The translations under genes and the position numbers were made by a program. The notes under the pieces are model-generated. The model saw nothing but the letters and a program-made list of their open reading frames with translations. It had not been told where the DNA came from and did no database searches. A stretch of 61,564 bases of DNA, filler included, from Stramenopiles sp. TOSAG23-2 (lineage: Eukaryota): the NCBI GenBank assembly GCA_900128395.1. It is 3 parts of 3 records of this genome, joined end to end, with 100 filler letters (N's around TTAATTAATTAA, not from the genome) between each part and the next. Parts side by side here need not be neighbours in the genome. Positions count along the whole stretch, not along the records: positions 25,782 to 51,459 come from LT649449.1; 2 more parts are not named here. One strand, given 5' to 3'. Of the stretch, positions 3,836-61,445 are shown in pieces. The stretch's first letter is position 1; every line of letters begins with the position of its first letter.

Positions 3836-5607
3836 TTAAAGAACCCCCCAAGGTTTAATATCAATACTGTCAAATACAGATTGATCCTCATTCAAAATGA
3901 AATCCATTTGCAATGATGTAGGTGTAGCGGATAAGCGACTGTATCCCCATGCGTTTAAATGATTGACGCTATAATTTCCATACAATGTACTGTTGAATCC
4001 GCATACTTCCAAACTCGCACCAGCGCTACCAATTACACTATGGACGGTTCCGGTACCGTCTTTAGTACATTTTTGTTTATATACTTTGCAAGTTCTTTCA
4101 TAATTATGTTGATGCCCATATAACATTAAATTGACTTGGTACTTGTAAATCAAATCTTCCATTTCCTCTTGCATATTTAAACTTACTTTATAATCTGCAT
4201 CTTCACACATTTGCGTTGTGTACATCATACGATGTCCAGTCAATATGACCCATGGAGTCGATGTACGATTGACACTTGCTAGATCTTGTTCAAGAAATTT
4301 ATATTGCTCGGAACCTTTGGTCCAATCATGTTCCGTACTCATCATTACAATATGTACAGGGCCAACGTTGAAGCTATACCAAAAGATCCCGTTTGTTTTT
4401 GCATTATATGGTGTCATCATTGGTGCTTTGAAACGATTGTACATCGGTACGCCACATTCACCGTTACTATCATCACCTAAATTCCCCCAACCTGGATGCC
4501 AACCTGCGGAAGTACGGACACCTGAAGGATCATGTGACATGCCGCCTTCCGTATGGTCATACTCATGATTGCCAATAGAAATCATATACGGTATTTGTGC
4601 TGCGAGTGGTTCTACTACATGAAACCATTTTTCCCATTGCCATGCTTGTCCTCGTGCATAGCTGATATCACCAAAGTGTATTAAAAATTGATTATAACCA
4701 CCTGTAAATACATCTTTCATAACATTCGTTGCCGTTGTCATTCCTTCTTGATATCCCATATCTGCATAGGCAATAAATTTAATACTTGCATCCAAATCAT
4801 CTTCCGCTGGGCGAGTAATAAATGATCTCTCTGAGGAAAATAAGAAATTATTATTACCGTTATGTCCGTAAATATAAAAATATTCCGTCGATGGTTTTAA
4901 ACCTTTTAATAATACATGATGTATCATACCTGGGTCCCGAAACCATAATTGCATGGTTTGATTTGCTGGACTTTGGCACATATCAGATGCATCATAAGTA
5001 ATAGATTTTCCTGTAAATATATTTTTTTTTCTCCTCCCTTTGTCAAACCAACTTTCACTACTGGCGTATCATGCGATCCACTGACGAAAGATACCCACAT
5101 CTCCCCGTGTTTATCTGCATATGATATATGACCTTGAGTTGGCATATCATTGCCACCCTTCACTTTTACCGTAAATGTTGCAATTGCTTTACCTGTTGTC
5201 CCTACCATAGAAATATATGTAAATATATAATTGCATCTCATATTAACTAACGAGTTTAATAAATGTACACTTCCAGTTGTAGATGATACATTTAAAAGAT
5301 CCAAATAGTCTGTAGCACTTTGAACAGGTCCACAACTAACAGTTATAAAATCATTTCCAGATACAGCACTTTTCATGTCTTCCCAGTATATATTTACATC
5401 AGCACCATTTTCAATAATAGCAGGTTTAACATAGAATTTTGCATCTTCACGAATATCTTCTTGAATTTCATTAATTAGAATATTATTATTATGTCTTTTG
5501 GCTGATAATTGTTTTCCTAAAAAATATTCTGGTGGATGTTCTCCAGCATATGCATCTTTGCAAAATGCAATAATAAATAATAACAATACGATTGGAATTA
5601 ATTTCAT
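3836..5607 (-). CDS. Purple acid phosphatase (secreted; FN3-like + metallophosphoesterase), split by an apparent frameshift at an A9 run (5022-5030)
   Basis: Signal peptide MKLIPIVLLLFIIAF from ATG 5607; ADMG, GDISY, GNHE, GHR and GHQH motifs in ORF 3836..4981; the two overlapping ORFs join as ...GGEK-K-NIFTGKSITYDASDMC if one A is added. Confidence 0.88.
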
Positions 5608-13502: not shown

Positions 13503-14238
13503 ATTGTGAAATAGTTATTATTATATTCTTATTATAATTCTTATTGAAATGTCTTGATATGTTCAAAAATGATTTACTACTTTGTCTATTTGTATATTTA
13601 TATCTATATTTATTTATTTATTTGTTATCTATTTGGTGGGATCCATTTTGTCAATAGTGTGTAGTGTTATTTTCATGTATTTGTAGAAATAAAATTAGGC
13701 CTCAAGAATTGACTGGTTTTGACGGCTTTACAGTGCTGTGTAAGTGCTACACAATGGTATGTAGCTGGTATTCAATTGTTTTTTAAATGACCAACTATTT
13801 GATAGAATATTTTATTCGTATAGTAGTAAGTGCAACTTCGCTTTCACGAATTTGCTTCCACAATATCAGCAGCACACACGAGTACAGACCGAAAGAGCCC
13901 ACAGCCCACAGCAGGCCAACAGCACACACGCCTCTCTCTCTCTGGCCTTGTCTTTATCCATTCTTCCAGCTTTTTTTATTGTCTTTTTCAGGATTTCGTC
14001 GTCTATGATGATGTACACATAGTAATAAATGGTGATATTACCTTCAATTTATTATTTAAAAAGAACAGAAATTAATACAGAAGACATATACGGAAATGTA
14101 CATCTCTGCATACAATAGACGAACAAAGAAAACAAGATATCATATATATTGTTTGCATAATAAATGTATCAGAGTTCTATTACACAAGAGGGATATATAT
14201 TAATAGGAAAAGAGGAGACTAAAACGAACGAACAAATC

Positions 14239-15717
14239 ATGTCGGAATCGTTAACGAAATATGATTTAACACACACTATGGCACCATTTCTAGATACACA
14301 CTTATTTTTCGATATATTCAGTCACTTTGAGAATAATAATACTAATTGCTATTTGAAAGAAGATTTATTAAATGCCAAGTTAGAATTAGTGAAACAAACC
14401 AACATGGTAGATATGGAAATGGAACTATTTCAACAATTGAATGGCAATGCTGCCGTGCCAACAGAAATGCAAGGCAAGAAAGAAGCGGTTGATAAACGTT
14501 GTAAAGACTTACATACTGCAGCTGGAAAACTAGTTGATTTAATTGAAAATGATTTTGATACCGTCAAAGAGTTAACAGAAAACGATAATTTTAACATGAC
14601 GTATTTACAAGAAAACAAGAACATCACCAATGAAAATTTAGACGCATTGTTTAAATACGGGAAAGAATTGTTCAATTGTGGGTCATACAATGAAGCGTTG
14701 TATTATTTAAATTATTACGTACGTTTAGACCCTTTCTCCAACCAAGGTTTTTCAGCTTTGTGGGGTAAACTAGCATGTAATATATTATCAAATACGGACA
14801 AAGGTTGCGATGCAGCTTATACTGATTTAAAATATATTGCTGATGAATGGGTGGATAAGTCAAAATTTTCACCAAGCATGACGTTGGAATACAGAGCATG
14901 GCTTTTGCATTGGAGTATCTTTATCTTCTTTAACAAAAACAATGCAAATGGACGTGAACAAATTGTTGAATTTTTATTGATGAAAGATAAGCATTTAAAT
15001 GCTATACAAAATTATTGCCCATGGTTATTGCGATATTTAGCAGCTGCTGTTGTCATCAATAAGAAAGGAAAACGAAGTGGTGATTTGTTGAAAAAAGTTG
15101 TACGTATCACACAGCAAGAACGCTACACGTTCAAAGACCCAATCACACAATTTGTTGAAGCATTATATGTGGATTTCGATTTTGAAGGCGCGCAAAAGAT
15201 GTTGCAAGAATGCGAGAAAGTATTTGAAGTGGATTCTTTCTTGTATAAATTTAAAGAGGAATTTATGAACAATAGCCGTTCTTTTATTTTTGAAACATAT
15301 TTTAGGATACATAAAAAAATTCACATTGATAAGGTCGCTGAGAACCTGAACAAAACGCCTGATGAGGCAGAGCGTTGGATAGTCAATTTAATTAGGAACG
15401 CACGTTTAAATGCAAAAATCAATTCTGAGGAAAAATATGTTGTCATGCAATCTAAATATCCATCCATCTATCAAAGAATGATGGAAAAAACGAAAAATTT
15501 GCAATACACAACCTATGTATTAGCTGATAATCTTAGAGAATTTTACACAGAATCACAACAGCGTGCAGCAGATTTAAAAGCTGAAAAGGAAAAATTAGCA
15601 AAAGCAAGAGAGGAAGAGGAGAAAAAAGCAGAGGAAGAAAGAAAACAAAAGGAAGAAGAGGAGAAGAAAAAAGCTGAAGCTGCAAAGCCAAAAATGGCTT
15701 GGGGTAAAGCTCGTTAA
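14239..15717 (+). CDS. EIF3E: Translation initiation factor eIF3 subunit E (INT6), PCI domain
   Basis: YDLT..MAPFLDTHL, TNMVD, ALWGKLA, RAWLLHWSIF, AERWIVNLIRNARLNAKI; ATG 14239 best matches the conserved N-terminus (ORF open from 14164). Confidence 0.95.
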   Translation: MSESLTKYDLTHTMAPFLDTHLFFDIFSHFENNNTNCYLKEDLLNAKLELVKQTNMVDMEMELFQQLNGNAAVPTEMQGKKEAVDKRCKDLHTAAGKLVDLIENDFDTVKELTENDNFNMTYLQENKNITNENLDALFKYGKELFNCGSYNEALYYLNYYVRLDPFSNQGFSALWGKLACNILSNTDKGCDAAYTDLKYIADEWVDKSKFSPSMTLEYRAWLLHWSIFIFFNKNNANGREQIVEFLLMKDKHLNAIQNYCPWLLRYLAAAVVINKKGKRSGDLLKKVVRITQQERYTFKDPITQFVEALYVDFDFEGAQKMLQECEKVFEVDSFLYKFKEEFMNNSRSFIFETYFRIHKKIHIDKVAENLNKTPDEAERWIVNLIRNARLNAKINSEEKYVVMQSKYPSIYQRMMEKTKNLQYTTYVLADNLREFYTESQQRAADLKAEKEKLAKAREEEEKKAEEERKQKEEEEKKKAEAAKPKMAWGKAR

Positions 15718-35681: not shown

Positions 35682-36019
35682 TGTGGTGATACTAATATTA
35701 TATATAATAAATTAATAATAGCTACTGTATTATTATAGGTGCATCACAGTCTTATATTATACTGTAATATAATACACGTGGTACGTAGCTATTAGTGAAA
35801 TACTGAATACTGCTCATGACAGAGTACTATTATGCATATAATACTGATTAAAAAAGTATTTTTAATATTTTACAAGTATTTATTTATATATATATATATA
35901 TATAAATAAAATATACGAAGTAATATATAAATATGCAATGTATGTTGTGTTGTACACTGTGTTATACCAAACGTACAGAAAATGATTCAACAAATATTTT
36001 ATTTATATCCATTTTTATT

Positions 36020-37357
36020 TTACACGGGCTTTAAATTAACCAGGACGTCAAAATGCAAACGTTTTGTGTTATATAAATATATCGTTTGATCTTTTTCACA
36101 CTCATTGACATCAGGCATGATGATAGACCATCGATCAAAAGTAGCTGAAACACCAGATTGGTAAACAACAATGCAAGTATTATATAGATAAGCAAGTATT
36201 GCTAATTCGTCATTCTCTGCCCATTCATTGTTTTTACTGCGTTTACGAGCTTTCTCAAATGTAGCCTTATTTAAATTGGGTGGTTTAAGCGGATTGAGAC
36301 CGACTAATTGACGTAATTCTGAACCAGTTGGAATATCTTTGTTTTTCTTTTTATATAAGTCCTTCAGTGCATATGATACACTTTCATAGCCACAGTCACC
36401 ATCGCCATCAATTTGAACAATTTGTGCCTCTTTAAAACTAGACCAAGGTGTTTGTATATTTTCTACGTTTGATTGAGGGGTAAGTTCATACATAATCCCC
36501 ACATCACTTTCAAATTCAATTATATCCACCTCCTCACTATCGTTATAATTATTATCTTGTTTTTCATTTTCATTACCATTATTATTATTATCATCATCCT
36601 TATTATTATTGCCATTGCTCGCGTCAATATTATTATTATCATCTCCATTTTCATCATTTTCTATATTATTTATCCCTATATTATTGCCAGTGCTCGCGTC
36701 AATATTATTATTATCATCTCCATTTTCATCATTTTCAATATTATTTTCTTCACTATCATTGCTGACTATTATAGTTTCGTTAATTGCTGATGTCGATTGT
36801 GTTAAATTGCAAGATTCTGGAAGTGCAAATGTCAATGTATAGTCACACGTATGTGGTTCCTCAACGTTTGATATCGTATATCTTTCACTGCATACCAAAT
36901 TGACCTGTACTTTGCGTTTAATGTTACCACCGCAAGGTGTACCATCATTATAAACTTGGACTTTAAACGCATCCTCGCTATTTTCAATATCTTCATCTTT
37001 CCAGTTACCCCATAAGCCTAATATACCATAGAATGGATTCCACGTTGTTTGCTTGTCAAGCTGTGTTATATTTCTAAATGGACAAACTTTATATTCATAC
37101 CTTCCAATATTCTCAGAAAAACATTTGCCATCAAGATGCAAAAAATCAGAAGGAGTTGACGGGCTTATCGTATGTGGCTTTCTAGATGGAGTTGGCAATA
37201 CTGGCGTAGATGAATGTGAATATGTATTTTTTTTCTTTGGTAATCCTTCTACAATTTTAATATCAAATTTACCATCATTGTCATTTGCATTCACATAGTA
37301 GTTCACCAGGATAAATACGGAACAATATATGTTCAAAAACAGAGCCATTTTGCACAT
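36020..37357 (-). CDS. Signal peptide + MRH (GNPTG/PRKCSH-like) lectin domain + C-terminal OTU-like cysteine protease domain
   Basis: LDGKCF...YEYKVCPFRNITQ...YNDGTPCGG..RKVQVNLVC...VEEPHTCDY (MRH); DGDCGYESVS...WAENDELAILA...HFDVL (OTU). Confidence 0.82.
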   Translation of the reverse strand: MCKMALFLNIYCSVFILVNYYVNANDNDGKFDIKIVEGLPKKKNTYSHSSTPVLPTPSRKPHTISPSTPSDFLHLDGKCFSENIGRYEYKVCPFRNITQLDKQTTWNPFYGILGLWGNWKDEDIENSEDAFKVQVYNDGTPCGGNIKRKVQVNLVCSERYTISNVEEPHTCDYTLTFALPESCNLTQSTSAINETIIVSNDSEENNIENDENGDDNNNIDASTGNNIGINNIENDENGDDNNNIDASNGNNNKDDDNNNNGNENEKQDNNYNDSEEVDIIEFESDVGIMYELTPQSNVENIQTPWSSFKEAQIVQIDGDGDCGYESVSYALKDLYKKKNKDIPTGSELRQLVGLNPLKPPNLNKATFEKARKRSKNNEWAENDELAILAYLYNTCIVVYQSGVSATFDRWSIIMPDVNECEKDQTIYLYNTKRLHFDVLVNLKPV

Positions 37358-37872
37358 GTTCTATTTATTTCTCCTTCTCTCTACATTTAGAATTTATTTA
37401 TTCTTATGGAAAAATTATAAAAGATATACTGTGTAAATAGTAATATACTAATATCTAATACAATAATATGTATATTTTAATTTTAATAATATGTGCACCA
37501 CACACATGTGCACATCAGTTGTTGCCAGCCTGGCCAGGTGGTTGCTTAATAATAATAATTATTCCTACGCACACCTAGCACCCTACTATTGCCAGATTGA
37601 ATAATTTATTATAATTAGAAAAAATAAATAATATATATATAGTGGAGAGAGTAAAAGTAAATCATACACATAATAATATATTTGAATATATTGTTGTATT
37701 AATATTAATAATACAATTATTTCACATACATAGTAATAATAATAGACGACCACTACATGCAACAAATCATTAATTTTCGACGACTAATATATTTATTTTT
37801 TTTAAATTGAATGAAATATAATATATTACATTGAAAAACATAGTATCAAAATATTTATCACCTCATGGTGCC

Positions 37873-48343: not shown

Positions 48344-51259
48344 ATGGGAAAAGCCGGAAGAAAAGGCGTGAAGTCATTGAAGACGTTGGTGAAGTCATCC
48401 ATTGCTCTTACCAAGCTTCGGAAAAAACGGGCAAAGAAAAAACCACCATCGCCAAATACAGAGAAAAATTTAAAAAAAATATTAAATAAAGATGAAAATA
48501 TAAAAGCAAATGAGAAAATTATCGTTAAATCAAGTACAGTTAAGAAGAAGAAAAATCTGAGTCTCAAGTCTCTAATAAAAACAAAAATGGCTTTATCTAA
48601 ATTGAAAAAAAGTGCTTCTGGTAAAAAAAAGAAAAAGGCCAGTAACAGCCCCAGATCAAATGTCAAAAATAAAAGGTCCACGTCCGTAGCAGCTTCAACA
48701 CCAATAAGTGAAGAGGTAGTATCAACAGCCGATACTAGCAATATATACAATAAAAATAATGATGATAATGATCACAGCAACGATACAAACAGCATGATAG
48801 ATAACGTTTACGACCAATCAATAGATGATATAGAAGTTTTACCCCTTTCTCAAGTACAAGCAATAAGGACAATAAGTGCACAAGTAGTTGAAGAACTATC
48901 GGAAAAATTGAAAACGTCATTAATTAACGACATCAAACATATGGTTGCATCTGAAATACAACAAAACAATAAAGAAAATATACATGGGCATAGATCTACA
49001 AGTGCACAGCATGAACGACCAACCGGCAGTTATCAGAGTAATTACACTCAAAGCTTTTCACGTAGTCGCAATGATTACCAATTTCATGATGTGCCAAATC
49101 CTATAAACAATACAGATAGATATAACAATCCAAAAGTTCCATCATTACAATTCGAAAATCTAAATCAATTTTTACAAGATGCAAGACATTATTTAACCAA
49201 TGAATTGTTAATGGGAGGCATCAGTGGTAATAAAGATAGCAAAAAAATACGTAGAACTGCAGTTTCTGCAATGTTCAATTCTAATAATTCAATAAACAAC
49301 CGCAATCATGGAGTATACCGAATGAATAACAATCATAGGAATAATAATTATACCAACCATCAACACACGAGCAGTCATTCAACACAACATATTTCAGAAA
49401 ATAATATTCTTCATAAAAATTTAAATGAACAACACTCATCACCATCAGACTCGCATAATAAACATACTAGAAACCATCAGCATCATAGGTATCGCCAAGA
49501 TCATCAATATGATCATGTTCCATACCCTACAAATTTACGCACTGGTGATGCTGAAGAATATTCCCAATATTGCAAAAATAATAGTGACAGTAAACACGGT
49601 AAAAATCGTCAAATAAATCCATATCATAGTAGTAGTAATCACCACTACCACCACCACCACCAACAACAACAACAGCAACAACAACAAAAGCGGAAAGATT
49701 ATAGAAATAATACACATACAACCAATCACGATCATACAACGATAGCTAAACACACAAATAAAGATGAATGGAGAAAAGAATTGAAATTTAATGATAATAA
49801 TGCGACTGATGCGAAACATCGAGTTTCAGCAAGCAAGGCAAAGAAAGAAAATGACAATATAAAGTTGGATAATAATGATGATGATGATGAATCGCCAGTG
49901 ACGCCAATTAAAAAAAATAATTATGGTAAGAAAGTAACTGATATTGACAAAATGTTGATAATTGATTCGTCGCTTAATACGGACATTCAAATGAAAAAAA
50001 ACAATAATAATAATGACGAAAAGAATCAAGATAATATCAATGTAAAAAAAGTAATGAAAACAACTCAAACTCCTTCAAAAGAAGTTGTTGAAAAAGATAC
50101 TATGACTGGAAATGACGAGATGGAGGATGAATACGATGAGGAATTAGATAAAATACCTATACGAGCAGAGGTACCAATCACAAATGCACGATTGAGAAAT
50201 TTCAAAAAACGTGGAAGATGGTCATCAATGCTTTCCGCCGCTTTAGACATTGAAAATATTGATATTAATAGTAATCAGAACGAAGAAAATACTGCCGGGC
50301 TCCCATCAAAAGGTAAATTCAAAGACCCAATGACAGGCATAACATTTAAAAATCCTGGTATACAGCACCCATGGTCAACAAGTCATATGACAGCAGAAAG
50401 TAAAAAACAATTTATTGATAATATTAGACGAAAGCATCAAATGGAAAAAAAAGTTAAAATAGACGAGCAAAGTGGAGTAAATCTATATCAATTAAAACCA
50501 TCTTTAGAAGAACCAAAAGCGCAAAACATTTTAATGCATCGATGTTTACGTAGTTTAGGGGTTAAGGATATTGGTACAAAAAGTAAATTTGTTGAAAAAA
50601 TTTCCGATATTGAAATTAATGTAGAGTTGCCATTTTCAAATCGTATTTTAGACATGATGTTAACATTTTGCCATACAAAAAATATAGACGCGTCAAGTTT
50701 AGCAAGGATCAAATCCATATGGCTACAACTTGAAGTAGATGAACAGTGTATCCCACTCGGGCATCCAGTTAAAATTAAATGGTTTGACCTATTAGTACAA
50801 CTTGGCTCAATGCCATCATCAAAATCCTCTAAGAAAAAAAGTGGAAAGCCCAGAAGATCATCCATATCTAGCAAGAAAAGTGGCTTGACATCAAAAGCAC
50901 TTAGGCCGCCGGCTTCAATAAAAGGCTCTGTTCGTGGATCTAGAAGAGGTTCAACAGCACGGAGTTCCATAAAAAGCTCTGTGGCCGGTCCTATGAAAGC
51001 TACTACCACTAGTGCAAGCAAAAAAGGAACAAAAATCACAAATATCGGACCAGTATTAGTACCATATGAACGAAGCACTGGTAAATGCCATTTCCCCGTT
51101 GTACGCCGCACTGTTTTACACACGGTGACAGCAAAGAAATCGGAGAAAATTAACTACTTTTTGCGATTTGAATTAGGTTTCATTGAATCATTTATTGAAA
51201 AGCTATATGAAAAATTGAAGTTATCAAATGAATTATTAGATAGTGTGATAGAGGAATGA
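48344..51259 (+). CDS. Hypothetical low-complexity protein (K-, N-, H- and Q-rich)
   Basis: 971-aa open frame; no family recognised. Confidence 0.7.
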   Translation: MGKAGRKGVKSLKTLVKSSIALTKLRKKRAKKKPPSPNTEKNLKKILNKDENIKANEKIIVKSSTVKKKKNLSLKSLIKTKMALSKLKKSASGKKKKKASNSPRSNVKNKRSTSVAASTPISEEVVSTADTSNIYNKNNDDNDHSNDTNSMIDNVYDQSIDDIEVLPLSQVQAIRTISAQVVEELSEKLKTSLINDIKHMVASEIQQNNKENIHGHRSTSAQHERPTGSYQSNYTQSFSRSRNDYQFHDVPNPINNTDRYNNPKVPSLQFENLNQFLQDARHYLTNELLMGGISGNKDSKKIRRTAVSAMFNSNNSINNRNHGVYRMNNNHRNNNYTNHQHTSSHSTQHISENNILHKNLNEQHSSPSDSHNKHTRNHQHHRYRQDHQYDHVPYPTNLRTGDAEEYSQYCKNNSDSKHGKNRQINPYHSSSNHHYHHHHQQQQQQQQQKRKDYRNNTHTTNHDHTTIAKHTNKDEWRKELKFNDNNATDAKHRVSASKAKKENDNIKLDNNDDDDESPVTPIKKNNYGKKVTDIDKMLIIDSSLNTDIQMKKNNNNNDEKNQDNINVKKVMKTTQTPSKEVVEKDTMTGNDEMEDEYDEELDKIPIRAEVPITNARLRNFKKRGRWSSMLSAALDIENIDINSNQNEENTAGLPSKGKFKDPMTGITFKNPGIQHPWSTSHMTAESKKQFIDNIRRKHQMEKKVKIDEQSGVNLYQLKPSLEEPKAQNILMHRCLRSLGVKDIGTKSKFVEKISDIEINVELPFSNRILDMMLTFCHTKNIDASSLARIKSIWLQLEVDEQCIPLGHPVKIKWFDLLVQLGSMPSSKSSKKKSGKPRRSSISSKKSGLTSKALRPPASIKGSVRGSRRGSTARSSIKSSVAGPMKATTTSASKKGTKITNIGPVLVPYERSTGKCHFPVVRRTVLHTVTAKKSEKINYFLRFELGFIESFIEKLYEKLKLSNELLDSVIEE

Positions 51260-51689: not shown

Positions 51690-52604
51690 TTACTCCGGCC
51701 GAATCTGTTTGGCATACGACCTGATGGTGTCAATATTTCCTAGCACCAGAAAAAACGTGTACGAATACTTCGCATTGGCTGGCAGTGAAAGTGTTTGCAC
51801 GGGCGCTATGTAACCTGTGGATGCATCGTGTGATTTACCTGTTCCTTTTTTTCCAGAGAACCCACCAATAAAGTTGATCGTATCAAAATTAACGACACCC
51901 ATCCCAAACCCTTCTGCGTTTACCAACGCAGCCCAATTTTCATCCGCGACAAAGTGCCCAGGGATCCATGGAAAAGGTTTTGAAGTGTCGAAACTAGCGT
52001 TGTACTCTTTGATTAGACCATTTTCAGACGTAACAAGACGGTAGAACGGACCGTTAGAATAAACAGCTGGAAGTTCTTGACTCATTGGCGGGTACACCGT
52101 TGTGTCGGCCCTATGGTTGTGTAAAGTAACTTCAACCTTAGCGCCGGTTCCGGCAGGCCCTCCAAGGGTTATATTTCGCTCAAACTCGCACTCACACGGT
52201 ACATTGTCACAAGCCCACTGCAGGGGCTTAGTAACAATATGAATATTATCTGACTGAACAGTCCTGGAAAGCACCGCCCCATGATTGCCCTTCACATCAC
52301 CGGCACCAATAGGATTCCATGGCCACTTTTGCCCCCTAAAAAGTTTATTGCATTTTCCGTCTGGATTATAAAAATTTGGTCCAGCATAAAAAGATAATTG
52401 AATTTCCCTGCCCATATCGTAACAGTTAACAATATTATCGTTGCTCCCAGACGCCGATAAGTAACCAATAGACCCCCCACGAGAATTGTCTATGCCAAGC
52501 CGCAGAACACCATTGTCAATGTAAGTAAAGTTACTATCCTCAGCTGCATTCGAAACTTGGAACCCGAAGGCACACAGAACGAATATTAAGAGTTGGCTTG
52601 TCAT
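51690..52604 (-). CDS. Secreted beta-rich protein of unknown function, bacterial-like
   Basis: Signal peptide, IDNGVLRLGID..RGGSIGYL, DMGREIQLSFYAGP, WPWNPIGAGD; visibly higher GC than neighbours. Confidence 0.75.
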   Translation of the reverse strand: MTSQLLIFVLCAFGFQVSNAAEDSNFTYIDNGVLRLGIDNSRGGSIGYLSASGSNDNIVNCYDMGREIQLSFYAGPNFYNPDGKCNKLFRGQKWPWNPIGAGDVKGNHGAVLSRTVQSDNIHIVTKPLQWACDNVPCECEFERNITLGGPAGTGAKVEVTLHNHRADTTVYPPMSQELPAVYSNGPFYRLVTSENGLIKEYNASFDTSKPFPWIPGHFVADENWAALVNAEGFGMGVVNFDTINFIGGFSGKKGTGKSHDASTGYIAPVQTLSLPANAKYSYTFFLVLGNIDTIRSYAKQIRPE

Positions 52605-54001: not shown

Positions 54002-56998
54002 TTATGAAATATAATATCTTGTTTTTGATCGATTTACTACTCTGCGTAATATGCATATATATGTATAATTCAACGCATGTTTCGTATAATTAGCTTCGGA
54101 ATTTAAATTTTTAAATTCATGATCCAAGACTTCACTAAAACTTATTAAATTTGATGCATCCTCATCTGCCTCTTTTTTTCTTTTTTTGAAAGAATTGCGA
54201 CGCCCGGAATATACTTTGACAATCGATTGAGAATGCGAGCGAGATGCTTTTCTTGTTTTTTCCCATTCTGTATTTAGATCATCAGGTATATCTTTATGCA
54301 ATAAATGTTGATTTTTTTCATGCATTTTCTTAATTTCATTTTGTTGTTGGTTGTCAGTGTCCATCTCATCATCGTTGAAATCATTATAAATATCCACACC
54401 TTCTAAATGATCATTTTCATCATCTTCCTCATCATCATCATCATCACTCAAATATGTATATGCATATTGCATTTTACCTGTTGCATCCATGTATTCCGTA
54501 ACAATTGCATTGCGTTTTTTAATACGTATGTTTAAACCGGAGTTTCTTTCTGGCAATAATTTCATGCTTTTATAAAGTAATTGAAGATCAGCTGTTGATA
54601 CTATGTTTTTCTTACTGCGAGTTGTATTAAACTCATCATCACCATTTTCTTTCGTATTTCGGGAATCAACATTTTCATCGTTCATTTGCTTAAGCGACAT
54701 GCTACCAGATCTACTTGGGGCTTTACTGCTTGCTTTGCTATTTGATTTACTTGGTTGTTTACTGACTTGTGTAGGTGTTGGTGCTGTTGATGATGGTATA
54801 ATTATATTTATTACACCTTCACTTTCTGTATCATTATAATCAGGGATATTTTCTTCTTCCTGGGCCGCTTTAATATTTTTAATAACATCACTTAATATTT
54901 GAAACAATTTATCTTCTATTTTTTCTAATATTTCTGAGATTTGATTCTTTTCTTTTTTCAATCTATTTATATCAGCAGCTGAACTGCGCGCAGGAGAACG
55001 ATTGATAATGGACGAACGACGCTTCCTTCTAGGCATTACAAATTTTGTCAATGGGTCTTCGTCTAATTGTACAGATGGCACCTTTACACCAATCCGTTTT
55101 GCGCATGCAGTTAAACCAATTAAACCATCGCGCTTTGTGACAAATTTAGTATGTGCACGCATTTTTGCGTGGTTTGCCTCATCAATTGCTTCCTTTAATT
55201 TAGAATTGTAAATATCAATTCCCAAACGCTTCTCATCACTTGTCGATACGCCTCCCCCGCTAATAAGTTTACTTTGTTCCAACAAGCGTTTCAAACGACT
55301 AACTTCTTGATGAAATTGTTCTAATTGTTGCTCTTTTTGCTCAATCAAATTATTTAAATTTTGAAATCTTCCTTCTTGATTTTCGAAAGATTCCAAAATT
55401 TTCTCCACATCACTAACACCAGTAGCTTGAAAAATATTCATTGCGGCCTCTTTGTATGGTTTTAAACGTTTTTCCTCTGCTTCTTTCTTTGCCTTTAAAA
55501 GCATTTGTTTCACTTCTTGCTCTTTCGCTTCTTTTGCCATTTGTTTCGCTTGTAAATCATCGCGAAACATTTGTGCTACTCTATCTCTTCGATTTGCCAT
55601 TCGTTGAATTTCTGCTGTCCACAATGCGCTATCTTCCACTTCTGCTAACAGCCTCTCCTCCAATAAACGATGTTTCTTCCTATTTTTTACAATTATTTTC
55701 TGCAATTTTGCATCTTCTATTTTTAAATGATCAAATTGTTTCATAATATCCCAATACGTTGCTTTTGTTATTTTTATATCTTCTTTATTTTTCGCTATAT
55801 GATGGTTGAAATCTTCGATTTGTTTTGACATACGACTTTTAAAAACCCCTTCCCTTTCCAATATGTAGTGTATTTGTGACTCCCAACGTTGTGAATTAGC
55901 ACTTAAAATAGCTAAACACTCTCTACATTTACGAGTCACAATCTCTTTCATAGACATGCCTGAAAATAATAAATCATTAATTTTTTTTGGTGTTTCCATA
56001 TGCAAATGACTATGACCAACAACATCGTTTAAAATGTCATCTAATATCGTTATTGGAGGTGTTCCTTGATGAAAAGAATACAAAAATTTGCGAACTCGCT
56101 TTATTAATAATTCATGCAACATTCGAGAAACCGTTGCTTTTGGTGACAAAGCATCGTCATATGATAATTCTTCGTATTGTATCCCTTTATGTTCAATTTT
56201 TAAGTTTGCCCTGAAATGATCAAACTTTTTATTTAAAACTTTTGTTAATTGCAACCTTTTCAGTTTTAATTGGTTGTATTTATTTTTTAATTGAGTAACT
56301 TCATCAGCTAATGTTTCTTTCGCAAATTCTTTGGCTTTCGAAAATGGTAAACCTCGATGTGATTGTTTATTGGCATTGTTCTTATTAATTTTCTTTCTTT
56401 TTGTTGGACTTTTCGTTGGAGTTGTTTGTTTTACTCTGCTGTTATTTTTATTGTTCTTCGTCTCATCCTTCTCCTCCTCCTTTTGTTGCACATTTTCTGT
56501 ATTGCGAGTCTCCAATTGTTTTTTTTTACGATTATTTTTCATAATTGGTGAAGTTTTTACTGTTTTATTATCACTAGGAACAATGTTTGGAACACGCGTA
56601 CGTTCAATTCTTCCTTTACTAATTACACTTTTTCCTGACATAAACTTACTATTTCTAGGTCGTTGCGGAGGTGGTATTGGATTGTTATATTTTGAGTTAT
56701 TAAATTGACTATTGCTATCACTGACACTTTGTTCAATTAAATTTCGTAATCCTTCCTCTTTCTCTTTTAATATTTGCTCCTCTTTATTTTTTTTATACAT
56801 TGCAACTACCCAAGTATCATATTCTCTTCTTTCCGCTTCAGCTTGAGCACGCCTACGAGCTTTCTTTGCATTTCTACGTCTTTTCTTTTTTTTCACGTCA
56901 TTCACACGAGGTATAGCTCCTGGAGCATGTTTAGTTACCTCATTATCCTCGTTATTATTCAAGAATATAGATCCAAATGGTTGTATGTCGTACGACAT
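54002..56998 (-). CDS. Coiled-coil protein with outer-dynein-arm docking complex (ODA-DC/CCDC151-like) segment
   Basis: 998 aa, long heptad regions, YKEAAMNIFQATGVSDVEKILESFENQE resembles the ATGVSD motif of ODA-DC proteins. Confidence 0.6.
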   Translation of the reverse strand: MSYDIQPFGSIFLNNNEDNEVTKHAPGAIPRVNDVKKKKRRRNAKKARRRAQAEAERREYDTWVVAMYKKNKEEQILKEKEEGLRNLIEQSVSDSNSQFNNSKYNNPIPPPQRPRNSKFMSGKSVISKGRIERTRVPNIVPSDNKTVKTSPIMKNNRKKKQLETRNTENVQQKEEEKDETKNNKNNSRVKQTTPTKSPTKRKKINKNNANKQSHRGLPFSKAKEFAKETLADEVTQLKNKYNQLKLKRLQLTKVLNKKFDHFRANLKIEHKGIQYEELSYDDALSPKATVSRMLHELLIKRVRKFLYSFHQGTPPITILDDILNDVVGHSHLHMETPKKINDLLFSGMSMKEIVTRKCRECLAILSANSQRWESQIHYILEREGVFKSRMSKQIEDFNHHIAKNKEDIKITKATYWDIMKQFDHLKIEDAKLQKIIVKNRKKHRLLEERLLAEVEDSALWTAEIQRMANRRDRVAQMFRDDLQAKQMAKEAKEQEVKQMLLKAKKEAEEKRLKPYKEAAMNIFQATGVSDVEKILESFENQEGRFQNLNNLIEQKEQQLEQFHQEVSRLKRLLEQSKLISGGGVSTSDEKRLGIDIYNSKLKEAIDEANHAKMRAHTKFVTKRDGLIGLTACAKRIGVKVPSVQLDEDPLTKFVMPRRKRRSSIINRSPARSSAADINRLKKEKNQISEILEKIEDKLFQILSDVIKNIKAAQEEENIPDYNDTESEGVINIIIPSSTAPTPTQVSKQPSKSNSKASSKAPSRSGSMSLKQMNDENVDSRNTKENGDDEFNTTRSKKNIVSTADLQLLYKSMKLLPERNSGLNIRIKKRNAIVTEYMDATGKMQYAYTYLSDDDDDEEDDENDHLEGVDIYNDFNDDEMDTDNQQQNEIKKMHEKNQHLLHKDIPDDLNTEWEKTRKASRSHSQSIVKVYSGRRNSFKKRKKEADEDASNLISFSEVLDHEFKNLNSEANYTKHALNYTYICILRRVVNRSKTRYYIS

Positions 56999-58022
56999 TT
57001 TTGCAAAAACAGCACCCTCAAGTCAAGATAAAAGAACGATCTAAAGAGTGAATTGCATGTATATTTTGTTGTGCAAAAGGATTTATATATTCTGTTTTTG
57101 TATATGTATATTTAGACTATTTGTCAAAACAACAACATGCATTCATTTTTTTCGTTTTCAATGATGGTATGTTCATTGTGTCTACTATGATAGGCAGTTA
57201 TTTAACAGTCGTCGGACTCGATGAAGATATTATGTTTGAGTATGGTCTTTCTTTTTTGCCATGATCTGTTCATAGTAAAATAATATTATACTGTATAAGC
57301 AAAATTCCACACTGCAAACCAAAGGCAAAGGCACAAAAGCAACACAAATTTGTAGAAAAAGGCTGTCGTCAAAATAATTAAGTCGAAGGTCTAATATTTT
57401 AAGTTCCCTTAATTATTTTCATGTATGATATACTCCTCGTAATAGTCTATGTAATAGCACTGTGATTGATGGTGTGTTAGTGTTAATCCCTTGTAAATAA
57501 GACGGATGAAACTCTCCCCAAAACAGACGGGTTCTAATTAGTACAGATTTATTATACTATAGATATTTGATAGGTAGATCTTTGGAAATAATAAATTCAT
57601 GGAATATTGATATCGCTATTTCTCCCATGCTATGTACCTGGAAAATAATGGAGGTTTTCTTAATACTTTTCCCATACTGTGCTGTTATAGAAAATTAATA
57701 ACACCAATTATAATAAAAAATGCATCATAAAAAATATTAAAATGGTGGTTTTAGGGCATTTTCCTTAAAACAAAATGTCGTTATTGTGCAGTGTGAATCA
57801 ATACACTAAATGGCAACTAATCTGGTAATAATAAAGCAACTAAAATATAAGCTGTATTCAAACGAATTATACAAAAGAAACAATTGAATAATATACAATA
57901 AAGATAATTGTTTACATGTGTGATGACAAAAAGTTCTTTTGCCTCTATCTCTCTCGTTATATCACACTGACTCTATTTGTTTGAAGCAAGTAGATTCATG
58001 TCCTTTTTGTAAAATAAATACC

Positions 58023-59126
58023 ATGGCTGATAATTCAAATGTACAATTAATAGCCTTAGTAAAAATTATATATCCTGGAAACTCCAATGCAACGAAACAG
58101 ATACACGAGTTAAAAATGGTATCAACAGGTGATACAGTAGAGCAACTGAAAATTAAAATAGAAGAAGAGTTTGGATATAAGGCATCTCATCAACAGTTGT
58201 GTTATTGCAATGATATCATGGATAATGAAGAACGGCTGTTGCATTATAAAGTTGAGAACAATACTTTTAATTATGTTGAAATATATGTATATATGATGGA
58301 TGAACCGTCAAGAACGTTTGGTAAAAATAACAAGGATAAAAAAAAAGAATCTAAAGGAGAAACGAAAAAAAATTTATGGAAAAAAGTTAAAGAAGAAACA
58401 TTTAAAAATAATAAGAAAAAAATTGTAGATCCATATATACCACAGAAACAAGATGAAAGGTTATGGATACCTGTAAGTGGATTTTTGCCTATTAAACCAC
58501 CGACTAGAAGAGCAATGTCGGAAGGTACAAAAGGTGTTTTACGTTTTATGGATGAATATAAATCTCATGCTGGTGTGCAACAGGAATGTTGCTTTGGTCT
58601 TATTACATTAGCACAGAGAACGGAAGAAGCGTTAATATTCAAAGAACGGTTAGTCAAAGAGGGTGTCATTGCTCGTGTAACAACGGCGTTGGCGCGTTTT
58701 TCATCTCACTATGGTTTACAAAAGCAAGGATTAGGTGTCATTCATTACATACTTTTTGATAAAAATACGGATTGCATATTTTCAATTATTCAACGTAAAG
58801 GTGTCCCTTTATCATTGAAAGCAATGGAAAAGTCTGTGTCACAATTACAACGATTAGAGAAAGGAGATCGTATTGAAAGTACTGGTATAACATGTTGTGA
58901 TATTATTGAATTTAGTTTGCATATTTTAATGATTTGTTGTGAATTTACATTATCAGCCCATACACAAGCGAAAGATGGTGATATTGAAAAAATATTGAAT
59001 GATGCTAAACAAGCTATCGAAGGTTGTTTGCAAGAGGATCGTTGTACAATATTAATCACTAAATTATTGAAAATTATAAAGGGTAAACCACCTAAAGAAA
59101 AGAAACAAAAGAAGAAGAAGAAATAA
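58023..59126 (+). CDS. Ubiquitin-like domain protein with ARM-like helical C-terminus
   Basis: DTVEQLKIKIEEEFG..ASHQQLCY...RLLHYKV UBL pattern; HAGVQQECC and HYGLQKQGL repeats; first ATG 58023. Confidence 0.7.
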   Translation: MADNSNVQLIALVKIIYPGNSNATKQIHELKMVSTGDTVEQLKIKIEEEFGYKASHQQLCYCNDIMDNEERLLHYKVENNTFNYVEIYVYMMDEPSRTFGKNNKDKKKESKGETKKNLWKKVKEETFKNNKKKIVDPYIPQKQDERLWIPVSGFLPIKPPTRRAMSEGTKGVLRFMDEYKSHAGVQQECCFGLITLAQRTEEALIFKERLVKEGVIARVTTALARFSSHYGLQKQGLGVIHYILFDKNTDCIFSIIQRKGVPLSLKAMEKSVSQLQRLEKGDRIESTGITCCDIIEFSLHILMICCEFTLSAHTQAKDGDIEKILNDAKQAIEGCLQEDRCTILITKLLKIIKGKPPKEKKQKKKKK

Positions 59127-60410: not shown

Positions 60411-61445
60411 ATGATGACCGAAACAATTATCATATTTGCTACATTATGTATTGTAGCCTGTCATGCAGTACATCCAGTGCAAGATGGTTCTTTAACGGAA
60501 ACTGAAGAGTTTTTGTCATATATGGAAGTTTACAATAAACAATATGCTACCATGGAAGAGAAAAACAAACGTATGAGTATTTTTTTAAAACATAAAGAAT
60601 TTGTCATTAATCATAACAATGAATATGCTAAAGGTATCCATACGTTTTCATTGGAATTGAACGCCTTTGCGGATATTACCAACGAAGAGTACAAAGCTAA
60701 ATATTTAGGTTTGAAAATTGACATTGGAAGTTATTTAGGCGGGAAGGCAGATACTTACGTTCCAGAATTCAAAGGTGCTGCACCAGATGCATGGGATTGG
60801 AGAACCAACGCTACAAATGTTGTAGGTCCGGTAAAGAACCAAGGTGGGTGTGGGAGTTGTTGGGCTTTCTCTGCTGTTGCAACTATGGAAGGGCAATTAA
60901 ACAAGAAAACAAATAAAATTAATTCTTTATCAGAGCAAGAGTTGGTTGATTGTGTACGAGGTGGCAAAGATACCTGCACGCAAGGAGGTGAAATGTATGA
61001 TGGTGAAGAGTATGGTGTAACAACTGGTATGGTGTCAGAGGCAGACTATCCATATCAAGGTTCATCTGGCAATGCATGCAGCGTAAAAGGAAAAAATATT
61101 GTGCACAAATACAGTGGGTATACTAACATTACATCGGGTGACGAGGATGCATTAAAATCTGCGACATTTGAACAACCAATTATTAGCGTTGGTATCGATG
61201 CTAGCTCCATATGGTTTCAATTATACTTTGGTGGTGTGTTCAATGATAAAAGCTGCAAAACAAAAGCAGCTGATTTAGACCATGGTGTTGCAGTTGTTGG
61301 ATACGGCACTTACAAAGGCAAAGATTTCTGGATGGTAAGAAATAGTTGGGGCGGCAGCTGGGGTATCAAAGGATACATCATGATGTCTCGTAATGCAAAC
61401 AATCAATGCGGTATTGCTACGCAGGCTTCTTTTGCAAAATTGTAA
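60411..61445 (+). CDS. Cathepsin L-like papain-family (C1A) cysteine protease with I29 propeptide
   Basis: Signal peptide, LNAFADITNEEY, DWR, VKNQGGCGSCWAFS, LDHGV, RNSWG. Confidence 0.96.
   Translation: MMTETIIIFATLCIVACHAVHPVQDGSLTETEEFLSYMEVYNKQYATMEEKNKRMSIFLKHKEFVINHNNEYAKGIHTFSLELNAFADITNEEYKAKYLGLKIDIGSYLGGKADTYVPEFKGAAPDAWDWRTNATNVVGPVKNQGGCGSCWAFSAVATMEGQLNKKTNKINSLSEQELVDCVRGGKDTCTQGGEMYDGEEYGVTTGMVSEADYPYQGSSGNACSVKGKNIVHKYSGYTNITSGDEDALKSATFEQPIISVGIDASSIWFQLYFGGVFNDKSCKTKAADLDHGVAVVGYGTYKGKDFWMVRNSWGGSWGIKGYIMMSRNANNQCGIATQASFAKL

Follow-up and report, generated by a model that had tools for sequence, protein, structure and literature searches.

Can a lectin of the secretory pathway carry an OTU-type cysteine protease in the same soluble chain? 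This question is raised by a gene of Stramenopiles sp. TOSAG23-2 (assembly GCA_900128395.1), which is located on the minus strand at positions 36020..37357 of a DNA stretch of 61,564 nucleotides, filler included (the window in the following), and which encodes a hydrophobic N-terminus, an MRH lectin domain, an acidic linker and a C-terminal OTU-type domain. OTU enzymes have been studied as regulators of ubiquitin signalling in the cytosol and nucleus, and as tools of viruses and bacteria against ubiquitin signalling. The fusion of both domains in one gene is confirmed as a real observation. As both domains come from known families, it is a new domain architecture, possibly in a new compartment, for a known kind of enzyme, and neither a new fold nor a new kind of system.

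One reading frame in three lineages

The gene consists of a single unbroken open reading frame (ORF) of 445 codons with an ATG start and a TAA stop, and an in-frame TAG is located two codons 5' of the ATG. An ORF scan of the minus strand returned exactly the coordinates of a preliminary description that had been made from the sequence alone. The parts of the encoded protein P0001 and the adjoining signal are as follows:

36020..37357, minus strand: complete single-exon coding sequence (protein P0001), 445 amino acids (aa) and the TAA stop (ORF reading; orthologues L001, L002 and L003)
37286..37357, minus strand: probable cleavable signal peptide, aa 1-24 (hydrophobicity, -3/-1 rule by eye)
37148..37270, minus strand: conserved segment preceding the MRH domain, aa 30-70, KFDIKIVEGLPKKK..TP..SR.PH (9-member alignment)
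36803..37147, minus strand: MRH domain of the GNPTG type (Pfam PRKCSH_1 and PRKCSH above cut-off; PDB 7s69)
36446..36802, minus strand: acidic low-complexity linker rich in Asn, Asp and Glu, aa 186-304 (composition)
36596..36746, minus strand: tandem repeat of 75 nt (25 aa) in two copies within the linker (Tandem Repeats Finder, TRF)
36023..36445, minus strand: predicted OTU-fold cysteine protease domain, aa 305-445
36392..36394, minus strand: codon of the predicted catalytic Cys322 in D319-G-D-C (28-sequence alignment; alignment to the OTU of Crimean-Congo haemorrhagic fever virus, CCHFV)
36047..36055, minus strand: codons of H435-F-D437, with the predicted catalytic His435 and, two residues later, the acidic Asp437 (28-sequence alignment; CCHFV alignment)
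36014..36019, minus strand: AATAAA hexamer adjoining the stop codon, a possible polyadenylation signal (sequence reading)

A word-indexed search revealed eight relatives of P0001, and five of them (P0002, P0003, P0004, P0005 and P0006) contain both domains in intact form; P0007 is broken in the OTU part, and P0008 and P0009 have no OTU domain. P0027, which belongs to the cluster of P0007, is intact and carries H-Y-D. P0007 itself, encoded on a contig of 84,883 nt, departs from the near-identical P0027 at two places of the OTU region and ends early in a frameshift-like manner, so that we are dealing with an error of the assembly or with a copy that decays in one strain. There are 44 near-identical cluster members, and a length of 421-447 aa was found for 13 of the 15 among the matches listed. 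Furthermore, a metagenome scan recovered the whole gene as a single ORF in L001 (98% identity), L002 (446 aa) and L003 (453 aa). In L003 an orthologue of tRNase Z (53% identity) is located upstream in divergent orientation, which is the same arrangement as in the window, and in L002 an orthologue of the Arm-repeat protein (75% identity) follows downstream. The gene loci in the window, L002 and L003 are orthologous and belong to separately assembled and diverged genomes. The preliminary description had named two separate genes or a misassembly as what would speak against the fusion; there is no sign of either, as a single ORF with the same neighbours is present in three lineages.

Between these three lineages the synonymous sites are saturated, with a proportion of synonymous differences (pS) of 0.66-0.88 (Nei-Gojobori). 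In the OTU part, the proportion of nonsynonymous differences (pN) is 0.19-0.22 versus a pS of 0.66-0.79, with an amino-acid identity of 63-69%, and the corresponding values of the MRH part are a pN of 0.15-0.18 and an identity of 71-74%. The linker is only 22-27% identical between orthologues, and the frame is always kept. Both domains are under purifying selection and the linker is drifting. In a maximum likelihood tree of 28 OTU domains, for which every row of alignment A3 was trimmed to the domain and retained, the fused proteins, five in number, form one group (support 94/92; 92% of the bootstrap trees), and the nearest sequences are the stand-alone proteins P0033 and P0034/P0035, which lack a signal. 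Syntenic loci, saturated pS, low pN and the single group in the tree argue together for a fusion that is not recent, is maintained by selection and is consistent with a single origin. The recent capture of an OTU domain, which had been put forward before, is unsupported because the synonymous sites between the fused orthologues are saturated.

The stretch is present in 20 public runs of 15 studies, which are seawater metagenomes and polyA metatranscriptomes, and six of these runs contain RNA. Contigs of four RNA runs from four studies (three polyA-selected, one cDNA) match 36009-36553, 36629-36737 and 36899-37374, and both halves of the gene are covered by polyA-RNA contigs. At the 3' side these contigs end at 36009-36026 near the AATAAA hexamer, a position to be read with the restriction that contigs cannot prove an RNA end. 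RNA across the linker, proposed earlier as a check of the fusion, was found in part: two contigs, X18 record 8 and X19 record 15, extend from the linker into the OTU part, and a bridge from the MRH domain to the linker is absent, since none of the RNA contigs of the four runs spans 36737-36898 and no joint was reported. At this stretch P0002 has an indel, and contigs readily break at strain differences.

The RNA gap could also be taken as a hint that separate lectin and OTU genes were joined artificially by a misassembly, or that an intron or stop has been overlooked. The automatic gene model P0003 (328 aa, same locus) would fit this idea as well, because its intron takes away aa 171-283 and with them the final MRH strand plus linker. 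The acceptor site of the model lies inside X19 record 15, an RNA contig that covers 36009 to 36553 without interruption. This argues against the intron, which we assume is probably a prediction artefact; moreover, even P0003 keeps both domains in one protein. A frame of 445 codons in DNA of about 31% GC that has stayed open in three syntenic lineages, each assembled independently, despite a rapidly changing linker, together with the narrow length range of the cluster members, makes an artificial origin of the fusion highly improbable.

The C-terminal OTU-type domain

The assignment of the C-terminal domain is based on several lines of evidence. A language-model look-up of aa 290-445 placed 26 of 30 matches in OTU clusters (top score 0.94), and a HMMER search of 1.84 billion representatives yielded 34 relatives of the OTU domain at E<=1e-3. 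When the domain itself and 30 relatives were scanned, the Pfam OTU model was detected in 23 of the 31 sequences (best E 7.8e-21) and otubain in five. The AlphaFold2 model of the domain, calculated from the 28-row alignment, reached a predicted local distance difference test score (pLDDT) of 90.3 and a predicted template modelling score (pTM) of 0.87, and Foldseek gave 56 PDB matches of this model at E<=1e-3, with OTUs throughout among the matches listed. The family profile matched 41 PDB sequences, the best of which is the OTU of the nairovirus CCHFV (E 6.9e-15).

In this profile alignment gDGdCgYhA is placed on GDGNCFYHS and vHFDlL on THFDAL of the viral enzyme, so that D319/C322 and H435/D437 align onto GDGNC and HFD, whose residues we take to be the catalytic ones of the CCHFV OTU. 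Cys322 and His435 are invariant in all 28 aligned sequences, Asp319 is nearly so, and all fused orthologues retain Asp437 as part of an HFD or HYD motif. D319-G-D-C322 and H435-F-D437 fit the pattern expected of OTU enzymes, in which the catalytic Cys opens a helix behind Asp-Gly-x and the catalytic His, close to the C-terminus, is followed two residues later by an acidic one. According to model and alignments, the C-terminal domain has the OTU fold and the predicted catalytic residues of an OTU protease.

This agrees well with the preliminary description, which had recognized an OTU-like domain at about 36440-36020: the profile, Foldseek, AlphaFold2 and the Pfam matches of the relatives concur, and the D-G-D-C motif with the Cys codon at 36392-36394 and the terminal HFD are present as claimed. 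A departure from the OTU fold, named there as evidence to the contrary, did not occur in the Foldseek search, the profile or the model. The W-x6-LA helix has to be corrected in one respect, as both the W and the LA are present and the spacing is x5 and not x6 (W379-x5-L385-A386).

The solved or well-known OTUs used for comparison are the nairovirus vOTU (3phu, 3phw), yeast Otu2 (7pl7), Wolbachia wMelOTU (6w9o) and human OTUD1, OTUD3 and OTUD5, which share 14-23% identity with the OTU domain of P0001. These comparators work in the cytosol or nucleus, the bacterial ones inside the host cell, and a literature search gave no report of a soluble chain in which one of them follows a signal peptide or is combined with a lectin domain. 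The nearest OTU relatives are the stand-alone proteins P0033, P0034 and P0035, which match the OTU part with E values of 7e-33 to 1e-16 and are 51%, 45% and 44% identical over the matched stretch. In contrast to the fused proteins, they have neither an N-terminal hydrophobic segment nor an MRH domain, and their N-termini are basic. The gene of P0034 is located on a contig of 711,453 nt.

The suggestion of a viral-like OTU finds no specific support, as the matches to viral and to cellular OTUs are equally strong. Fold matches in BFVD show E values of about 1e-6 at 12-23% identity and are no closer than cellular OTUs, and a scan of a viral contig collection with the narrower alignment A4 matched 42 pattern stretches, none of which was confirmed. 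Hence a viral source of the OTU domain is neither shown nor excluded.

The lectin half, the linker and the predicted topology

The MRH domain had been described as GNPTG/glucosidase-II-beta-like at about 37150-36805, which is in line with the Pfam span of about 37147-36803. Two Pfam models exceed their cut-offs, PRKCSH_1 at aa 74-200 (E 3.4e-11, 43.5 bits, cut-off 23) and PRKCSH at aa 77-142 (E 4e-9, 37.7 bits, cut-off 27). The best PDB sequence match is frog GNPTG (7s69, E 1.9e-23, aa 61-184), and the runners-up of this single-sequence search are glucosidase II beta (E 6e-12) and OS-9 (E 0.004). The family profile gave the same order, with 128.9 bits for GNPTG (E 2.7e-36), 63.5 bits for glucosidase II beta (E 1.9e-16), 40.3 bits for ERLEC1 and 36.1 bits for OS-9. 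Judged by these sequence comparisons, GNPTG is the nearest of the solved MRH proteins to the MRH domain of P0001; this identity rests on sequence and not on the full-length AlphaFold model (pLDDT 32).

The mannose-binding-type residues noticed before were confirmed by the alignment, in which Q99, R148, E167 and Y173 stand opposite the Q, R, E and Y of frog GNPTG, and the R-E (19) and E-Y (6) spacings are identical to those of GNPTG. In human GNPTG the residues Gln91, Arg134, Glu153 and Tyr159 hold the terminal mannose, and the MRH domain contains three disulfides, as described in the available part of PMC9388126. The cysteines 79, 92, 142, 156, 171 and 183 of P0001 are invariant in eight of nine aligned sequences, with P0003 being gapped there, and three disulfides are predicted for its MRH domain as well.

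P0001 resembles GNPTG in the predicted signal-type N-terminus, the MRH domain, the identical Gln/Arg/Glu/Tyr pocket with its six cysteines and the presence of a conserved segment in front of the domain. In this segment ten positions (K34, I35, V36, P40, K41, T45, S49, R59, P61 and P69) are invariant in all nine family members, the unfused ones included. It differs from GNPTG in that this segment has no detectable similarity to solved chains, as aa 25-75 gave no match to PDB sequences at E<=10. The N-terminal segment of GNPTG forms the main contact to the enzyme complex (PMC9388126, available part), and because of the missing PDB match the likeness to this docking segment is an analogy only. 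P0001 also differs in its C-terminal half, where no DMAP1-binding-like module or coiled coil was detected and a 119-residue acidic linker and the OTU domain are found instead; the alignment to 7s69 stops at chain residue 156-160 of 293.

Further types of C-terminus are found in unfused MRH proteins of related protists, namely P0008, P0009 and the ORF 3893-4816 (plus strand) of L006, which share the MRH domain and the preceding segment with 38-57% identity there. Instead of the OTU domain, these end in a single EF-hand-like motif below the Pfam cut-off (EF-hand_1 23.3 bits, cut-off 25.4) or, as in P0009, have no recognisable domain at this place. L006 and the fused L002 belong to one assembly series. 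These different modules behind the MRH domain suggest that the C-terminal slot is a swappable accessory position. It is conceivable in this context that the OTU domain is a non-catalytic recognition module which has replaced a DMAP1-like cargo module and simply holds lumenal cargo by a ubiquitin-like fold or by a C-terminal tail. The OTU follows the MRH domain at the place where vertebrate GNPTG has its DMAP1-like module, which recognises hydrolases (PMC9388126, available part), and the sub-threshold EF-hand of the unfused relatives at this place points in the same direction. The catalytic-type residues argue otherwise, since Cys322 and His435 are invariant and Asp319 is nearly invariant in fused and unfused proteins, and Asp437 is retained in all fused orthologues. 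Pseudo-enzymes usually lose their catalytic residues, and we consider a pure recognition module quite unlikely.

The linker between both domains is rich in Asn and Asp, as stated before (33 N, 16 D and 15 E in the 115 residues of aa 186-300), and has a net charge of -29. Its tandem repeat was identified by TRF with a period of 75, 2.0 copies and 94% matches, and the unit reads NIENDENGDDNNNIDAS.GNN-like. The RNA contigs X18 record 8 and X19 record 15, which come from different studies, have 50 nt where the window has 125; as both are shorter by 75 nt, which equals one repeat unit, the copy number seems to vary between strains. In the full-length AlphaFold model (9-row alignment A1, mean pLDDT 32) the linker showed no confident structure.

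The signal-like segment at the N-terminus consists of the short n-region MCK, the h-region ALFLNIYCSVFILV and V-N-A before the polar NDNDG. The V-N-A in front of N25 fits the -3/-1 rule by eye, which would predict cleavage at this position. In a Kyte-Doolittle scan the 19-residue mean peaks at 1.74 at aa 4, which is the sole peak above 1.6 in P0001 and agrees with the hydrophobic segment noticed in the preliminary description. A second peak above 1.0 (1.38 at aa 385) belongs to the helix-strand of the OTU core and is also found in the stand-alone OTU relatives. The hydrophobic start is common to all fused orthologues, and the scan gave a single strong N-terminal peak in P0001, P0002, P0004, P0005 and P0006. 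In agreement with the earlier reading, the scan detected no membrane segment between the MRH and OTU domains. Together with the glycan-binding, disulfide-bearing lectin, this makes it a well-founded inference from the sequence that lectin and OTU domain share one side of the membrane, lumenal or extracellular. The C-termini, with the tails ...NLKPV, ...ADRLK and ...VNNKM, show no KDEL-type or other ER-retention sequence (ER, endoplasmic reticulum).

The predicted signal peptide and the C-terminus without ER-retention signal would also be in line with a secreted effector, whose OTU domain would reach the cytosol of a host cell or of prey and strip ubiquitin or a ubiquitin-like modifier there, and whose lectin would be used for uptake via surface glycans. 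Wolbachia wMelOTU, Simkania SnOTU and Legionella Lpg2248 are found among the matches of the OTU domain, and these solved OTUs of intracellular bacteria act as delivered effectors. As the stretch was found in the seawater metagenomes and polyA metatranscriptomes of the 20 runs without a sign of host association, as neither a translocation motif nor an apparatus for delivery is known in the case of the MRH-OTU protein, and as the lectin is of the intracellular sorting type, we give little credence to a delivered effector.

A different destination behind the ER would be a complex plastid, where the protein might arrive via a bipartite signal and act as a deubiquitinase of the periplastid compartment, with the lectin picking N-glycosylated preproteins. 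This assumes an import machine in that compartment which is derived from ER-associated degradation (ERAD) and is ubiquitin-dependent, and it would supply the OTU with a ubiquitin-type substrate beyond the ER membrane. The region after the predicted cleavage site starts acidic (NDNDG) and is conserved across the family down to single residues, which transit peptides are not known to be, and both features speak against a transit peptide. In addition, no plastid-specific Pfam family was found among the 20 other window ORFs scanned, and among solved structures the lectin is closest to GNPTG, a protein of the Golgi. There is a precedent in Toxoplasma TgOTU7, an OTU deubiquitinase of the apicoplast, i.e., of an organelle reached via the secretory pathway; it differs in that its compartment has its own ubiquitin-like system and that the available part of the source (PMC10795397) mentions no lectin domain. 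Overall, we regard a periplastid role as improbable.

Proposed role and genomic surroundings

Based on the sequence features, it seems reasonably probable to us that P0001 is a soluble lectin-tethered OTU protease of the secretory pathway which resides in the Golgi or endolysosomal lumen. The signal peptide would direct the protein into the ER, and the GNPTG-type MRH domain with its intact Gln/Arg/Glu/Tyr pocket would bind the terminal mannose of high-mannose N-glycans. The long flexible acidic linker may then tether an OTU protease with Asp319, Cys322, His435 and Asp437, which by analogy would sit in the slot of the hydrolase-recognising DMAP1-like module of vertebrate GNPTG. Such a lectin-guided protease or isopeptidase is predicted to act on glycoproteins in the lumen of the Golgi or of endolysosomes. 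We infer signal-peptide cleavage, lumenal location, catalysis, glycan specificity and any link to GlcNAc-1-phosphotransferase.

Several points weigh against a lumenal, glycan-guided OTU protease. Ubiquitin is not known from the ER or Golgi lumen, and a classical deubiquitinase would therefore have no obvious substrate there. The Pfam OTU model (PF02338) stays below its cut-off of 23.3 bits, both with the whole protein (18.8 bits, E 0.0024) and with the isolated aa 290-445 (21.6 bits, E 0.00032), which is why the OTU call made by eye needed the further tests described above, all of which it passed. The evidence for the signal peptide consists of hydrophobicity, the -3/-1 rule and the disulfide-bearing lectin. 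No DMAP1-like module was found with Pfam at E<=1, so the comparison with GNPTG stays an unproven analogy, and the low pLDDT of the full-length model allows no reading of contacts between the MRH and OTU domains. The RNA gap in the window at the border of MRH domain and linker has to be added to this list. Finally, the OTU domain has no extra cysteines or lumen-specific features in comparison with its signal-less relatives, as Cys395 and Cys420 are common to both. N-glycosylation sequons were also considered as a sign of a lumenal OTU. At reference position ~361 an N-L-S is present in P0004, P0005, P0006 and P0007, but the window protein has no sequon there and the signal-less stand-alone P0033 has N-L-T, and consequently sequons are not informative.

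A related possibility, derived by analogy, is that the protein may serve as a gamma-like lectin subunit of lysosomal-enzyme tagging in this lineage, or as another sorting lectin of the Golgi or of endolysosomes, in which an active OTU isopeptidase has replaced the cargo module. We consider this unlikely; if true, it would mean that a Gly-Gly-like tail or an isopeptide bond is cleaved in the secretory or lysosomal lumen, coupled to the recognition of high-mannose glycoproteins. Neither such a compartment nor such a class of substrates is known for OTU enzymes.

No paper containing both "OTU domain" and "MRH domain" was found in a literature search. Among the matches listed for OTU deubiquitinases in connection with signal peptide, secretion or lumen, no lumenal OTU appears in the titles or the starts of the abstracts, and the top match concerns the cytosolic plant OTU1 and OTU2 in ERAD. 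The same sections of the matches listed for OTU-like cysteine proteases with a signal peptide contain no lectin fusion, and an atlas look-up of full-length P0001 gave no usable match. According to the available part of a 2026 preprint on the mannose 6-phosphate system in 53 eukaryotes, GNPTG was found in three species and then set aside.

The window DNA is AT-rich and of eukaryotic nuclear type, with 29-38% GC, and is dense in long uninterrupted ORFs. These encode a kinesin, an Arm-repeat protein, tRNase Z, a POPDC/cNMP protein, a RasGEF-VPS9 protein, eIF2B-epsilon, eIF3e, Ku, an actin-family protein and a cathepsin L-like protease. The host of the MRH-OTU gene is an intron-poor marine protist. 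For its eIF3e orthologue (14164-15717, plus strand) the nearest named relatives are spread across amoebae, fungi, animals and plants, with identities of 41-46%; as none of them exceeds 46%, the protein collection contains no named species close to the organism. Two window ORFs encode hydrolases of a type common in lysosomes or the secretory pathway, a cathepsin L-type papain protease with an I29 propeptide (60411-61445, plus strand) and a purple acid phosphatase (3836-4981, minus strand). A ubiquitin-family domain is present in a protein of 395 aa (57939-59126, plus strand). Three ORFs have no Pfam match at E<=1e-4 (48344-51259, plus strand, 971 aa; 51690-52604, minus strand, 304 aa; 54002-56998, minus strand, 998 aa).

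With about 140 residues and a confident fold prediction, the OTU domain should be easy to express and to assay. The conserved and selected architecture argues for OTU proteolysis that is unrelated to cytosolic ubiquitin, or for a ubiquitin-like substrate in an unexpected compartment. Furthermore, GNPTG-type lectins with interchangeable C-terminal modules exist in uncultured marine protists, and these interchangeable modules bear on the evolution of lysosomal-enzyme sorting outside animals.

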